NCBI RefSeq assembly: GCF_000172995.2
Contig: NC_014729.1
Span: 240,001 to 272,000 of the forward strand
Length of the DNA stretch: 32,000 nt
Direction: 5' to 3'
Source: Halogeometricum borinquense DSM 11551
GTDB lineage: Archaea > Halobacteriota > Halobacteria > Halobacteriales > Haloferacaceae
This document shows, piece after piece, positions 8,493-12,657 of this stretch. Below the pieces are notes generated by a model that was given only the letters and a program-made list of their open reading frames with translations, did no database searches and had not been told where the DNA came from. Each line of letters begins with the position of its first letter. Within the stretch, counting starts at the first letter, position 1. The translations under genes were made by a program, and so were the position numbers.

Positions 8493-9011
8493 CTACGCCG
8501 TGGCTTTTGCGCGCTCGTGGTACCATCCGCCGAAGGCACCGAGCGGGATCACGAACCAGCCAGCGGCCACGAGAGCGAAGACGAATGAGGGGATGAGAAG
8601 GAGGGCGAACCCTGCCGCCTCCGAGACCGGCATCGCACCGCTGTTCACGTTGCTGATAGCCAAGAACAGTGCGGGGCCGAGCGAACCCACTGCGAGACTA
8701 GCGAGCGCAGTCATCGCGCCGAACACTGCGCCGTAGAGTTCTCGATTCTCTTTGGGGTACAGTTTCCGCCAGAGGAGCGTCCCAATGACGAACGAAGTCG
8801 GAAGTACCAGCGGGAGGAAGAACAGACCCATGCCGAAGGTAAATCCGAGCGTTCCGTTTCCGGTCTTCGCGGCGATGGCCCACGCGCCCGCAAACCAGAC
8901 AACTGTCGCCAAGAGTCCAGTCGCGGCCATCGCGATTCCACCGCCGATGTCACGCCGAGAGGCGTAGGGGAGTCGCCCCGGACCGAACCGCTTGCAGAGA
9001 TTTCGTCCCAT
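8493..9011 (-). CDS. Hypothetical integral membrane protein (about 5 TM)
   Basis: From ATG at 9011: MGRNLCKRF..., followed by serial hydrophobic helices (LLATVVWFAGAWAIAA, MGLFFLPLVLPTSFVIGTLLW, FGAMTALASLAVGSLGPALFLAI, FALLLIPSFVFALVAAGWFVIPLGAF). The region upstream of 9011 is AT-rich and non-coding. Confidence 0.6.
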   Translation of the reverse strand: MGRNLCKRFGPGRLPYASRRDIGGGIAMAATGLLATVVWFAGAWAIAAKTGNGTLGFTFGMGLFFLPLVLPTSFVIGTLLWRKLYPKENRELYGAVFGAMTALASLAVGSLGPALFLAISNVNSGAMPVSEAAGFALLLIPSFVFALVAAGWFVIPLGAFGGWYHERAKATA

Positions 9012-9193
9012 GAATAAATGTGGATTGAATAACAGTAAAAATGTATCGTACTCTGACATTAGGTGGCATCTGATTTGCGGTCCTATTCGACTCGTGTTCA
9101 GAAACTTCAGCTTACTTCCTCGGAACCGACGAATAGGGGTTGCATACCGATGAATTTCTCGGTGAAGCGTGGCCTGAGTCACGCTAACCGGCC

Positions 9194-10291
9194 TCAAAAC
9201 TCGCCGCGGAACTCACGGTCGGTGAGTCGTCGCCTATCGACTGGGTGCGCTCCGAGCGTCGTCGATTTGGTCATCTCTTGTCGATACGCGTTGTACACGT
9301 GAACCGTTTCGCCGTCCTGCGTTATCTCGTCGGTACCGCGAACGCTGTCGAAGACGCGCCAGTCGGTCTCTTTCGTATGATTGAACCAACAGACCATCTT
9401 CACGTCTTCTGTCCGCACGTAGTCGTATAGCTCGGTGATCCACGCCCCCTTCCGTTCGGGGTCGTTCCCTGAGTCCACTTCGGTCGAACAGCCGACTTCC
9501 GTGATGGCAATGGGTGCGTCGGTGACGCTCCGTATCTGTTTGAGCGCCTTCCCGTATATCTTCGGCGGCGCGAACCAGCTGACCCAGTTCCACCAGTTGT
9601 ACCCGTTTACCCCCGCCCAATCGACGACATCGTCGCCGGGGTAGTAGTCGGGTATCGGGATGCCGCCGCGCCCACCGGCGTTCGGTCCCCAGATCCACTG
9701 GATGTTCGAGGAGTCGAGTCCGTTCGACATCACGCGCCTGTGGACGTGACGGAACATCGCCACGTAGTCGTCGGGCGTCGAATCGCCAGCGGGCGCACCC
9801 CACGGCACCCAGTCACCGTTCATCTCCGGTGCGAATTCGAGGAATAAACGCCGGTCTGGTCGCCCCCACCCACGTCGCATCCACTTCGTGAGCGCGTCCC
9901 GCCACGCGTCCACGCTGTCGTCGTGTTTTCCGTCGGCGATATCTCTCGAAATCGTCGTTGACGTCTCCGTCTTGGTGCCGAACGTCGGTTCTAACACCAA
10001 CATCGGGACGTGTCCGTGCTGCCAGATCGATTCGAGTGACGAGACCGTTTGCGCTATCTCCTCCTCAGATTGCCCAAGCGTCGCATACTGGACGACGACT
10101 GCGTGCGGCTTGCCGGTCCACTGCTCGAACCGGTCGAGAGACCGAACCGGCGACCGTTGTATCGAAACCCCGGCGAGGAAGTCGCCGGTGCGCGTCTCTC
10201 CGGTACCCGCTACGCTACGTACGATACCAGCCCCGCCAACAGTCGTCCCCGCCGATGCGGCGACCAACCCCAGAAACCGCCGTCTCTCCAT
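9194..10291 (-). CDS. Tat-secreted glycoside hydrolase, GH26-like (clan GH-A, beta-mannanase type)
   Basis: Start at MERRRFLGLVAASAGTTVGGAG (twin-arginine signal). FLEFAPEMNGDWVPWG (acid/base Glu context), IQWIWGPNAGG, YYPGDDVVDWAGVNGYNWW and ITEVGCS (nucleophile Glu context) resemble GH26 signatures. Confidence 0.7.
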   Translation of the reverse strand: MERRRFLGLVAASAGTTVGGAGIVRSVAGTGETRTGDFLAGVSIQRSPVRSLDRFEQWTGKPHAVVVQYATLGQSEEEIAQTVSSLESIWQHGHVPMLVLEPTFGTKTETSTTISRDIADGKHDDSVDAWRDALTKWMRRGWGRPDRRLFLEFAPEMNGDWVPWGAPAGDSTPDDYVAMFRHVHRRVMSNGLDSSNIQWIWGPNAGGRGGIPIPDYYPGDDVVDWAGVNGYNWWNWVSWFAPPKIYGKALKQIRSVTDAPIAITEVGCSTEVDSGNDPERKGAWITELYDYVRTEDVKMVCWFNHTKETDWRVFDSVRGTDEITQDGETVHVYNAYRQEMTKSTTLGAHPVDRRRLTDREFRGEF

Positions 10292-10430
10292 ACTGCTTCG
10301 TCGGCATCCCGACTCCATTAGTAAGATACGACTATTTGGCTGGGTGCTAGGCTAAAGCTCGCATTTCGCACCCGACCATTCCACGCATGCTCGACATAAC
10401 AAAACAGTCGAAAACGCTCTCTTGGGGTGC

Positions 10431-10739
10431 ATGATGGGTGGAGAACAGATATCTACTGGACTGGACGCGAGCGCAGACACGGCTTGTCCCGACTGCGATG
10501 GTGGGCGCGTCCAGCGGGTTGGGATGTTCGAACACACGACGTGTGGATTCGTCGATGTCGCGGCAGGATTCGACGCTGCGGACCGCTATCTCAGTTGTCC
10601 AAAGTGCGACGAAACGCTGACGACGGCGGATGACGGTCTCACGTGCGTCGCGTTCGTCCTTCACTGTCCCGAGTGTGACAGACGCTTCGACGACGTAGCG
10701 ATCCCGTCGCTTGCGCCGCAGTCGGCGGAGGCAGACTGA
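10431..10739 (+). CDS. Small Zn-ribbon protein with three CPxC motifs (CPDC, CPKC, CPEC)
   Basis: ATG at 10431. Its stop lies 5 nt before the GT2 start at 10745. It is acidic and has no TM segment. It may be TackOD1-like, but that rests on memory only and is unverified. Confidence 0.6.
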   Translation: MMGGEQISTGLDASADTACPDCDGGRVQRVGMFEHTTCGFVDVAAGFDAADRYLSCPKCDETLTTADDGLTCVAFVLHCPECDRRFDDVAIPSLAPQSAEAD

Positions 10740-10744
10740 GGGCG

Positions 10745-12448
10745 ATGAACGAACCGACAGACGACGCTTTCGGGTGGTCAACACGCGCGCCGGTACAACT
10801 ATTGCTACTCTTCTTTGTCGTCCTCGCGGGAGTGGTGTTGTTTCCTCCCGTGATGATTTTCGGCCCGCTGGGGTTCGCATTCGTCTTTGCGGCCCTCGTA
10901 TTCGGCGCGGTACGCTGGCAGCGGTGGTCTGAACGACTCTTCGGAACCGGTCTTCCGATTCCCGGGTGGTTCGTGGCGGCGATACTGTCGTCGTTAGGTC
11001 TGTTTGCTCTCCTCGCCTACACCGAACGATACACCACCGAAGCGACGCCGTTCGTCTTTCTCGTGGCGTTTTGCCTTCCGTGGGTGGTCTCACTCACGGT
11101 CGGTGGTCGACTTCGTCGGTTGGCTAACACACGGGTACGACTCTCCATCTGGCTTGCTATTGTCCTCTCAGCACTCGTTCTCACCGGCGGATTCGTGTTC
11201 GGGTGGTCGGTTCCAACACCGTACGAGATGGCCGTCTTCGCTGGATTCGTCGTTATCGCCTTCATCGTCGTTGTGGTATTTCCGCTCACTATCGTGCAAA
11301 TGCGCGGCCGAGAGGAGTCGGACCACACACTTGATGACGACGATGCACCGCTCGTAAGTGTCCTCGTACCTGCGTACAACGAATCGAACTACGTCGGCGA
11401 CTGTCTCGATTCGATACTCGCTTCGGACTATCCAACAGACCGGCTGGAAGTCATCGTCATCGACGACGGAAGCACCGACGGAACGTATGCGGAGGCATCG
11501 GCCTACCGAAACGACCGCGTGTCAGTCTTTCACCGCTCGAACGGTGGAAAGCATGCGGCGCTCAACCTCGGGCTCTCTTGTAGCCGCGGTGATGTTGTCG
11601 TCGCAGTTGATGCCGACAGCATCTTGGCACCGTCCGCTCTCCGAACTGCTGTCGAACAGCTTCAGTCTGATCCACGCTTGGGTGCCGTTGCGGGCACCGT
11701 CGTCGTCAATAACGCCGACGGAATCGTTGGCAGTGTGCAGGCGTTAGAGTACGTTCTCGGCATCAACACGCTCCGTCGGGCGTTTTCCTACCTCGGTACG
11801 GTGATGGTAATTCCCGGTTGCCTCGGCGTGTTCCGCCGTGAGGCGCTCTCGGAGGTCGGCGGCTACGATCCCGACACCGTTACCGAGGACTTCGATTTAA
11901 CCGTCAGACTCCTCAAGGCGGGGTGGCGAGTCGAACTCAGTGAAGCTCTCGTCTACACTGAGGCTCCGTTCTCGCTGACTGACCTTTTGAACCAACGCCT
12001 TCGGTGGACGCGCGGGAACATCCAGACGCTGCTCAAACACCGCGACGTATTTTCGGAACCGGCGTACGGATTCCTTCATCGCTTCGCGTTTCCGCTTTCC
12101 GCGCTGTCGATTCTGTTTGTACCGTTTGCGAGTATTGTTGTTACGACGATGATCTTCGTCGCAATACTCAATGGCGCGTTCCTCGGGGTGGCGCTCGTCG
12201 CAGCATACTTCCTGTTTGTTCTCCTCTTCGTCGCTGCGATGGCGCTCGATCTATCTGACGGCGACTGGCGATTGCTCGCGTACGCCCCGCTCCACCTTGT
12301 CGGCTACCGGCAATTCCTCGATGTCATCGTGATTCGGACGGCGTTAATGCTGCTTCGCGGAACGAATAAACGGTGGGAGTCAGTCACACGCGAACGCCAA
12401 CAGTCGTCGGAGGCGCTAGCAGGATCACAGCGTCCCAGTGACGACTAA
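10745..12448 (+). CDS. Membrane-embedded processive family-2 glycosyltransferase (polysaccharide synthase type; BcsA/PgaC/NodC/CslA-like architecture)
   Basis: About 6 N-terminal TM helices, then VLVPAYNES, VIVIDDGSTDGT, VVAVDADS, VTEDFDL and QRLRW (11993-12007), then about 4 C-terminal TM helices. Confidence 0.85.
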   Translation: MNEPTDDAFGWSTRAPVQLLLLFFVVLAGVVLFPPVMIFGPLGFAFVFAALVFGAVRWQRWSERLFGTGLPIPGWFVAAILSSLGLFALLAYTERYTTEATPFVFLVAFCLPWVVSLTVGGRLRRLANTRVRLSIWLAIVLSALVLTGGFVFGWSVPTPYEMAVFAGFVVIAFIVVVVFPLTIVQMRGREESDHTLDDDDAPLVSVLVPAYNESNYVGDCLDSILASDYPTDRLEVIVIDDGSTDGTYAEASAYRNDRVSVFHRSNGGKHAALNLGLSCSRGDVVVAVDADSILAPSALRTAVEQLQSDPRLGAVAGTVVVNNADGIVGSVQALEYVLGINTLRRAFSYLGTVMVIPGCLGVFRREALSEVGGYDPDTVTEDFDLTVRLLKAGWRVELSEALVYTEAPFSLTDLLNQRLRWTRGNIQTLLKHRDVFSEPAYGFLHRFAFPLSALSILFVPFASIVVTTMIFVAILNGAFLGVALVAAYFLFVLLFVAAMALDLSDGDWRLLAYAPLHLVGYRQFLDVIVIRTALMLLRGTNKRWESVTRERQQSSEALAGSQRPSDD

Positions 12449-12657
12449 TCGACGATGATTCCCGACCCTTCGTCGCCCGTCCGTTCGCTCGCCATCTCGG
12501 TTCGGTAGCGTTCGATCCATCCGGCAAAGCAGTTCGGACAGAGTCGCTGACTGTCAACTTCCGAGCGGTCCACAGTGATTCTGACAGTACGCGCGAGTGC
12601 GTCTGTCACTTGCTCTCCACACGCGTCGCATGGATCGGTATCGCTCATTGCACCCAC
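12445..12657 (-). CDS. Small Zn-ribbon protein (CDAC...CPNC)
   Basis: 70-aa acidic ORF MGAMSDTDPCDACGEQV...RLCPNCFAGWIERY. Its 3' end overlaps the GT2 stop by 4 nt (convergent). A CTATAG element lies about 27 nt upstream of the start. Confidence 0.55.
   Translation of the reverse strand: MGAMSDTDPCDACGEQVTDALARTVRITVDRSEVDSQRLCPNCFAGWIERYRTEMASERTGDEGSGIIVD

Follow-up and report, generated by a model that had tools for sequence, protein, structure and literature searches.

Described synthase systems and the Halogeometricum locus

Among the described systems that produce extracellular polysaccharide (EPS) with a membrane-bound synthase, those for poly-N-acetylglucosamine (PNAG), PgaABCD in Escherichia coli, IcaADBC in Staphylococcus and MatAB in Streptomyces, offer the closest comparison for a locus at positions 9194-12657 of a 32,000-nt stretch of DNA from the haloarchaeon Halogeometricum borinquense (the whole stretch is referred to as the window). 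The locus encodes a membrane-integrated glycosyltransferase of family 2 (GT2) of the PgaC/BcsA/hyaluronan synthase (HAS) type, a double zinc-ribbon mini-protein (ZnR) and, divergently, a glycoside hydrolase of family 26 (GH26) with a predicted twin-arginine translocation (Tat) signal. PgaC and IcaA are most similar to the window GT2, and both the PNAG systems and the window possess a small co-translated accessory protein (PgaD, IcaD or MatA versus the ZnR) and a dedicated glycoside hydrolase (the C-terminal domain of PgaB versus the GH26). Relatives of the locus carry an extracellular de-N-acetylase, in some cases fused to the synthase in the manner of MatB and in others encoded apart from it as a DUF2334 protein. 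In contrast to the PNAG systems, the accessory protein of the window is a soluble zinc ribbon without a transmembrane (TM) segment instead of a small membrane protein such as PgaD or IcaD, the hydrolase belongs to GH26 and not to GH153 or GH20, the locus itself has no deacetylase, and the GT2 possesses six N-terminal TM helices and resides in an archaeal host without an outer membrane. To our knowledge, signalling by cyclic di-GMP (c-di-GMP) has not been reported in this host.

Two further systems resemble the locus in part. Like the BcsA-BcsB complex with its GH8 enzyme BcsZ and its PilZ domain, the window combines a GT2 that has a QxxRW motif and is predicted to be processive and to have a TM channel fold with a predicted secreted endoglycanase and a cytoplasmic regulatory candidate; however, neither PilZ nor BcsB is present, the candidate is a separate TackOD1-like ZnR, the hydrolase is of a family other than GH8, and the GT2 is closer to PgaC in sequence. 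Class I HAS, exemplified by Xenopus laevis HAS1 and Chlorella virus HAS, is a single-subunit synthase-translocase that gives the best full-length superposition of the GT2 model, at a sequence identity of ~20%. HAS carries a GDDR-type motif where the window GT2 has TED, and an alternating copolymer is not indicated for the latter.

The reading that we favour is that the locus is a synthase-dependent extracellular polysaccharide module, made up of a processive GT2, a ZnR that docks on it and an exported GH26, with a poly-N-acetylhexosamine as the most likely polymer; taken as a whole, we give it a probability of roughly 0.6. The four open reading frames (ORFs) that a first-pass annotation of the window had placed in positions 9194-12657 are all present at those coordinates.

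The glycosyltransferase

The GT2 gene (positions 10745-12448, plus strand) encodes 567 residues, and an NCBI protein of H. borinquense is 99% identical to its product. The first-pass annotation had taken the protein for a processive-type enzyme on account of four motifs, all of which are borne out: VIDDGSTDG (residues 238-246), VDADS (288-292), TED (380-382) and the QxxRW motif QRLRW (417-421; positions 11993-12007, plus strand), which lies in the predicted interface helix. A 23-sequence alignment of the family shows no variation at D240-D241, D289-A-D291, T380-E-D382, Q417, R418, R420 and W421. Hydropathy and an AlphaFold2 (AF2) model agree with the annotated six or so N-terminal TM helices; at the C-terminus, where about four had been proposed, three long helices are found, two strongly hydrophobic and one amphipathic.

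The Pfam families Glycos_transf_2, Glyco_tranf_2_3 and Glyco_trans_2_3 match the GT2 with E-values of 1e-32 to 1e-35, and chitin synthase and cellulose synthase families match more weakly. PgaC_IcaA is the best NCBIfam model (199.1 bits, E 1e-58), followed by NodC (113 bits) and CelA (92 bits), and it is the top model for every relative tested as well. By comparison, the N-glycosylation models AglG and AglJ reach 38.6 and 31.2 bits, below their cutoffs of 440 and 325 bits. The AF2 model has a predicted local distance difference test (pLDDT) score of 87.7 and a predicted template modelling (pTM) score of 0.86; in the PDB, Foldseek places E. coli BcsA (E 5e-16), X. laevis HAS1 and Chlorella virus HAS among the best matches to it, with the mannosyltransferase PcManGT of Pyrobaculum calidifontis at rank 6. 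On X. laevis HAS1 the model superposes with a TM-score of 0.60-0.61 and a root-mean-square deviation of 4.2 Å over 447-456 columns. Sequence profiles and predicted fold thus support a grouping of the GT2 with the processive membrane synthases and not with the dolichyl phosphate (Dol-P) sugar or N-glycosylation GT2s, a distinction that had been drawn from the motifs and the TM architecture before; we infer the processivity of the enzyme and its substrate.

PcManGT (6yv7) lends itself to a different reading, in which the GT2 is a transferase of this kind that acts on a lipid-linked glycan for N-glycosylation, the S-layer or a lipid, and in which GH26 and ZnR are only loosely related to it. This archaeal N-glycan mannosyltransferase with a minimal cellulose-synthase-like fold is the top PDB sequence match of the GT2 (E 3e-23), and a multidrug/oligosaccharidyl-lipid/polysaccharide (MOP) flippase, soluble GT2s and a GT-C enzyme adjoin the synthase gene in Halorientalis, Haloarchaeobius and the metagenome-assembled genome (MAG) L089. 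However, the alignment with PcManGT covers only the GT-A core (residues 197-407) and ends before QRLRW, whereas the matches to BcsA and HAS extend through the interface helix and the TM region, the BcsA alignments continuing past the QRLRW helix. PcManGT also differs in its length of 355 residues, its few TM helices and the absence of the N-terminal six-TM bundle, and we know of no GH26 or zinc-ribbon partners for it. With AglG and AglJ models at only 31-39 bits, and with a linkage to a secreted glycanase and extracellular deacetylases that fits a secreted polymer, a role of the GT2 in lipid-linked glycan assembly appears quite improbable.

The N-terminal six-TM region of the GT2 (residues 1-190, window 10745-11320) resembles an internal duplication, the unit of which consists of two TM helices, a short basic amphipathic helix, a beta strand and another TM helix; RW......F and R.P.W are conserved loop motifs in this region. 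Shorter GT2 paralogues of ~500 residues are devoid of its first half. Some metagenomic homologues of 639-748 residues (P0044, P0048, P0057, P0059, P0061 and P0114) carry an extra PF07411 (DUF1508) domain.

The zinc-ribbon mini-protein

Directly upstream of the GT2 gene lies the gene of the ZnR (positions 10431-10739, plus strand), a protein of 102 residues; its TGA stop codon is followed by GGGCG and then by the ATG of the GT2, a gap of 5 nt. The spacing and the three CPxC motifs had been noted before, and an HTTC motif can be added, the full order being CPDC...EHTTCG...CPKC...CPEC. These Cys/His ligands (CxxC...EHxxCG...CPxC...CxxC) are invariant in the orthologues. The Pfam family TackOD1 (PF18551) matches the protein with 38.9 bits (cutoff 32 bits) over profile positions 89-160 of 188. 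The full TackOD1 domain comprises five CxxC and one HxxC, of which the mini-protein has three and one: it shares the CxxC / EHxxCG / CPKC / CxxC core with full TackOD1 proteins, whereas it is devoid of their N-terminal part and of their C-terminal extension of ~130-150 residues. By its sequence we read it as a truncated member of the family. Neither a TM segment nor a signal peptide was detected in the mini-protein, which is predicted to be cytoplasmic.

An AF2 model of the ZnR has an all-beta fold with a pLDDT of 71.6, for which Foldseek returned nothing below an E-value of 0.2 and only generic zinc-ribbon proteins such as the N-terminal domain of MCM. An exhaustive search of 1.8 billion representatives retrieved four close stand-alone relatives and, at greater distance, ~40 full-length TackOD1 proteins, including a GGDEF fusion. 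A word-indexed homologue search with the mini-protein found only the query itself, and a scan of metagenomes for the haloarchaeal mini-protein family gave no matches.

TackOD1 has been described as an output domain of response regulators in TACK archaea, the function of which was called obscure, and it has also been reported from some bacteria and from thaumarchaeal type IV pilus loci (Galperin et al. 2018, PMC5847659). The links given there are to receiver (REC) domains, winged helix-turn-helix domains and type IV pilus loci, and glycosyltransferases are not among them (PMC5847659). Our literature search likewise found no report of an association between TackOD1 and GT2.

The glycoside hydrolase

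The GH26 gene (positions 9194-10291, minus strand) is separated from the ZnR-GT2 operon by a divergent intergenic region of 139 nt (10292-10430), which presumably contains a bidirectional promoter. Mechanically called, its ORF reaches 10318; the second Met, at 10291, is the likely start, because the orthologues have 365 residues and all begin with M-x-RR-x-[FYL]-L. The resulting protein of 365 residues begins with MERRRFLG. Its N-terminus, MERRRFLGLVAASAGTTVGG, consists of this twin-arginine motif and a hydrophobic segment (residues 6-24), and a twin-arginine motif is found at the N-terminus of all archaeal members of the alignment.

The proposal that this protein is a GH26 enzyme with a twin-arginine signal holds. 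The Pfam model GH26 (PF02156) matches a partial stretch with 27.7 bits (cutoff 20.2 bits), and the sequence contains EMNGDW, YYPGDDVVDWAGVNGY and ITEVG. The Glu residues of EMNGDW (E156) and ITEVG (E265) do not vary among 21 sequences and fall in register with E109 and E222 of CtLic26A, which is the GH26 module of Clostridium thermocellum CelH; we take E109 and E222 to be its catalytic acid/base and nucleophile, respectively. A search of the PDB with the single sequence finds CtLic26A with an E-value of 6.5e-24 and mannanases at ~1e-6. A profile of the 21-member family retrieves 40 GH26 structures with E-values of at most 1e-3, among them CtLic26A over the whole domain with 197 bits (E 3e-57), the best mannanase with 74.6 bits (7e-20) and xylanases with at most 59 bits. 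On these alignments the hydrolase is a genuine enzyme of GH26, a family of clan GH-A, and it is lichenase-like and not mannanase-like.

CtLic26A is thus the closest characterised relative, with both catalytic Glu aligned; the sequence identity is ~35% or less. In contrast to the clostridial module, the window enzyme stands alone, carries a predicted Tat signal and is tied genetically to a synthase. Where CtLic26A has a His before the acid/base Glu (LHE), the window enzyme has Pro (APE); a haloarchaeal C-terminal tail is added, and the substrate may not be a glucan. This tail, HP..R.LTD.EF.G.F, is common to the haloarchaeal GH26 partners and absent in the bacterial members and in CtLic26A. The occurrence of uncharacterised GH26 genes in EPS clusters has been noted in a study of Actinoplanes (PMC13390465).

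GH26 enzymes are mostly mannanases, and the first-pass annotation had accordingly considered a beta-mannan-like polymer. The NCBI name of the hydrolase is beta-mannanase, and the Pfam family is dominated by such enzymes. Both the name and the mannan proposal are weakly founded because the GH26 is lichenase-like: the solved mannanases are distant in the single-sequence search and stay at or below 75 bits in the profile search, as opposed to 197 bits for the lichenase; Pro takes the place of His next to the acid/base Glu; and the context of the GT2 family points to GlcNAc. The 'beta-mannanase' annotations of these GH26 genes are probably wrong, and a beta-mannan as product of the locus is very improbable.

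Linkage of the genes in haloarchaea and bacteria

Synteny among haloarchaea was assembled from the contigs that encode individual proteins; a scan of genome contigs with the GT2 alignment yielded, among the matches listed, mostly bacterial ones and two from haloarchaea. The trio of GH26, ZnR and GT2 is present in the window, in Halogranum, in Hgm. luteum and in a third relative (L084), which count as one context because they share flanking genes (peptidase S9, uracil phosphoribosyltransferase (UPRTase), CobW, ArsA and CstA). Elsewhere the same genes recur in other surroundings: Halorientalis has GH26, a small GT2, ZnR and GT2 together with a MOP flippase and a further GT2; the MAG L089 has GH26, a GT-C enzyme of the PMT_2 family, ZnR, GT2, small GT2s and a flippase; and Haloarchaeobius has a ZnR homologue of 164 residues, GT2, flippase and small GT2s, without GH26. 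Two species of Halomarina combine a divergent GH26 and the GT2 with a membrane-anchored DUF2334/Polysacc_deac_1 protein and have no ZnR.

In Natronococcus (L001, 8403-9704) and the metagenome contig L091 (1571-3079) the ZnR is fused, as a cytoplasmic N-terminus, through one TM helix to a DUF2334/Polysacc_deac_1 ectodomain that resembles carbohydrate esterases of family 4 (CE4) and is a putative deacetylase, giving single-pass proteins of 433 and 502 residues. The stop codon of both fusion genes overlaps the start of the GT2. L091 also encodes a PMT_2 enzyme and a convergent GH26, and no GH26 was found in the flanks of the Natronococcus genes. Haloprofundus has a shorter GT2 of 499 residues, of the paralogue type, without any partner.

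In total, GH26 and GT2 are linked in at least five unrelated haloarchaeal neighbourhoods, with rearranged gene order, and in two bacterial operons: in Desulfatitalea and in a member of the Verrucomicrobiia, a lichenase-like GH26 gene directly follows a gene in which GH18-like, CE4 and GT2 domains are fused. The co-conservation of hydrolase and synthase that the first-pass annotation had implied is thus found in relatives with different flanks and beyond the archaea. The ZnR gene ends at most 5 nt upstream of the GT2 start, or overlaps it, in seven haloarchaeal loci. The GH26 homologue P0143, on contig L090, has no GT2 in the 8 kb at hand, the upstream side of which ends at the contig edge. The association of GH26, ZnR and GT2 is beyond chance and recurs in several non-syntenic contexts.

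The module is minimal, as had been proposed, in the genome of H. borinquense; other haloarchaea add a deacetylase, a PMT_2-type GT-C enzyme, a MOP flippase or small GT2s. In L085, L087 and L089 the ZnR-GT2 pair lies within a conserved set that consists of a MOP/Wzx-type flippase of 503 residues, a TuaG/EpsD-like GT2 of ~330 residues and a GT2-like protein of ~245 residues, and L089 and L091 add the PMT_2 enzyme. Such a set points to decoration of the polymer or to a second pathway encoded at the same place.

TackOD1-synthase pairs beyond haloarchaea

Profile searches of GT2-anchored loci revealed full-length TackOD1 proteins encoded directly upstream of a PgaC-like GT2 in a Brockarchaeota MAG, where the genes overlap, in Chryseobacterium (9-nt gap) and in a Saprospiraceae MAG (3-nt gap). 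In Nitrosopumilaceae a REC-TackOD1 response regulator is encoded two genes after the GT2. In the converse search of metagenome contigs, with TackOD1 as the anchor, a PgaC-like GT2 lies directly downstream on the same strand in 76 of 80 loci; the other four have less than 700 nt of contig left, so that the pairing is found in 76/76 of the testable loci. The distance from the TackOD1 stop to the first possible GT2 start is between -14 and +17 nt in 72 of these 76 cases, and the TackOD1 proteins of the metagenomic loci form 25 clusters at 50% identity.

Most metagenomic TackOD1 loci encode an HlyD-like adaptor and a ~670-residue protein upstream. The typical operon (L092-L171; L054, 5766-13184; L061, 2642-7978) comprises the ~670-residue protein, which has no Pfam match, the adaptor, TackOD1 (~470 residues) and the PgaC-like GT2 (~435 residues), the stop and start codons of the latter two mostly overlapping; this conserved operon is bacterial, probably from Bacteroidota. 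The bacterial TackOD1 proteins have ~125 extra N-terminal residues, which might be a degenerate receiver domain.

These pairs bear on the question of whether the three genes of the window are merely coincidental neighbours, the GH26 serving nutrition on exogenous plant or algal glycans and the ZnR being an unrelated small protein. In favour of coincidence, the link of the three genes is a genomic and not an experimental one, the secretion of glycanases is known from haloarchaea, and small zinc-finger proteins are abundant in their genomes. Against coincidence stand the recurrence of the linkage in non-syntenic contexts despite rearrangement, and in bacteria as well, the ZnR-GT2 spacing of at most 5 nt or overlap, the fusions of the ZnR to another component of the pathway and the outcome of the TackOD1-anchored test. 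We regard a chance arrangement as very improbable.

For the placement of the ZnR where bacterial systems have a regulatory subunit, as put forward in the first-pass annotation, the tight coupling to the GT2 and the membership in a family of response-regulator outputs provide some substance; regulation itself is inferred. A broader reading would generalise this role: across Archaea and Bacteroidota, a widespread clade of PgaC-like synthases would have TackOD1 zinc ribbons as dedicated cytoplasmic partners, in the part taken by PilZ or PgaD in proteobacteria; REC-TackOD1 and GGDEF-TackOD1 proteins would touch the synthase directly and thereby toggle EPS synthesis; the ZnR-TM-deacetylase fusions and the mini-protein of haloarchaea would be stripped-down docking modules; and the Lic26A-like GH26 would be the cognate hydrolase, possibly with a new specificity for GlcNAc or GlcN. 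As a whole, this set of proposals is tentative, and we would not quite give it even odds.

Identity of the polymer

Among the candidate polymers, a poly-N-acetylhexosamine of PNAG-like or chitin-like type appears most likely, a beta-glucan less so and a beta-mannan least. A GlcNAc-type polymer is more likely than mannan because the GT2 is PgaC-like, because its bacterial relatives are fused to CE4 and GH18-like domains and because haloarchaeal relatives pair it with a DUF2334 deacetylase. All eight sampled bacterial relatives (35-41% identity) are fusions of CE4 and GT2, or of GH18-like, CE4 and GT2 domains. A CE4, TM and GT2 architecture is that of MatB, which makes PNAG in Streptomyces (PMC5972031). 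In haloarchaea, four loci (two Halomarina species, Natronococcus and L091) pair the GT2 with the DUF2334/Polysacc_deac_1 protein.

The GT2 ORFs of L004, L026, L029 and L042 encode 1118-1141 residues, with a GH18-like domain, a CE4 deacetylase and a PgaC-like GT2. In L026 (7778-8968) and L042 a lichenase-like GH26 protein, a lipoprotein or otherwise secreted, is encoded immediately downstream; L031 adds an Acyl_transf_3 domain.

The alternative of a beta-glucan, either mixed-linkage beta-1,3-1,4 or beta-1,3 or beta-1,4, would make the GH26 the matching endoglucanase, as BcsZ is for cellulose. It accounts for the closeness of the GH26 clade to CtLic26A, which by far exceeds that to mannanases and xylanases (197 bits versus at most 75), for a window without a deacetylase, and for the matches of the GT2 to cellulose synthase models and BcsA structures. 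However, the PgaC_IcaA score of the GT2 is twice its CelA score (199 versus 92 bits), and a deacetylase would have no role on an unsubstituted glucan, whereas a CE4 de-N-acetylase is fused to the synthase in every sampled bacterial relative, in some along with a GH18-like domain, and a DUF2334/CE4-like partner accompanies it in the four haloarchaeal loci. A glucan product is therefore unlikely, although it deserves to be taken seriously.

Several observations weigh against the favoured module with its poly-N-acetylhexosamine. As to the polymer, which for H. borinquense is a prediction, no deacetylase is encoded in the 32-kb window; a glucan would suit the GH26 better than a GlcNAc polymer, given that its one close relative with a known activity is a beta-1,3-1,4-glucanase; and our literature search found no report of PNAG in haloarchaea. 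As to the synthase, its 199.1 bits lie under the 422.3-bit cutoff of the PgaC_IcaA equivalog model (TIGR03937), its top sequence match in the PDB is PcManGT, and a continuous polysaccharide channel is suggested indirectly, by the superposition of its model on channel-forming synthases. As to the partners, the ZnR is missing in both Halomarina species and in Haloprofundus and is not essential for every member of the family, and the flippase and soluble GT2s beside the module in three genomes make a mixed or lipid-linked pathway possible there. If the GlcNAc-type polymer is nevertheless correct, the GH26 clade would have a specificity that has not yet been described for GH26.

Neighbouring genes

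Downstream, a gene on the minus strand (positions 12445-12657) converges on the GT2 gene, the 3' ends overlapping at the GT2 stop codon. It encodes a zinc-finger mini-protein of 70 residues that matches Pfam DUF7569 over its full length (E 2.3e-34). In the related loci examined no homologue was found at the equivalent position or elsewhere, which confines the gene, among these loci, to H. borinquense; the relatives have the UPRTase gene there, ~30-70 nt after the GT2. The first-pass annotation had counted this protein to the locus as a second zinc-ribbon protein; absent from all relatives examined, it is rejected as a second subunit and is a neighbour outside the conserved module.

On the other side, downstream of the GH26 gene and on the same strand, an ORF at positions 8493-9197 (minus strand) encodes a hydrophobic protein that neither matches a Pfam family nor recurs in the related loci; with a start at MAATGLL it would comprise ~145 residues and ~4 TM helices. 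The GC content at third codon positions is 0.62-0.66 in the GT2 and both mini-protein genes, compared to 0.71-0.82 in the GH26 and flanking genes, which might reflect a distinct history or weaker expression.

Proposed mechanism and implications

The observed gene content, motifs, fold, localisation signals and conserved linkage can be combined in the following model. The ZnR-GT2 operon would give rise to one mRNA and thereby to the synthase together with its cytoplasmic zinc-ribbon partner. The cytoplasmic GT-A domain of the synthase, with its DDG, DAD, TED and QRLRW motifs, would add sugars from a nucleotide sugar, and, judging from family and fold, the presumably beta-linked chain would be threaded outward between the TM helices of the GT2 itself. 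The ZnR may bind physically to the cytoplasmic face of the synthase, where it would serve as an accessory subunit, regulate the enzyme or tether further components to it. Outside the cell, the Tat-exported GH26, presumably a retaining endo-beta-glycanase, may trim, release or remodel the polymer, as its signal, family and linkage suggest. In other lineages the zinc ribbon would tether a deacetylase to the synthase, and in TACK archaea and Bacteroidota full-length TackOD1, sometimes with REC or GGDEF, may couple signalling to synthesis.

Our literature search found no characterised archaeal synthase-dependent polysaccharide pathway, and the module may represent a new variant of the synthase-dependent EPS systems, to judge from its sequences and models. 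For the hydrolase, the association means that a lichenase-like GH26 clade is tied to synthases and not to the degradation of plant biomass. For TackOD1, a two-component output domain described in 2018 as obscure in its role, the pairing provides a first functional context. The almost invariable translational coupling of TackOD1 to a PgaC-like synthase suggests a c-di-GMP-independent route from signal transduction to EPS synthesis in archaea and Bacteroidota. The assembly of extracellular polysaccharide matrices by archaea is poorly understood, and the locus of H. borinquense, compact and conserved as it is, represents a candidate that can be tested genetically in haloarchaea amenable to cultivation.

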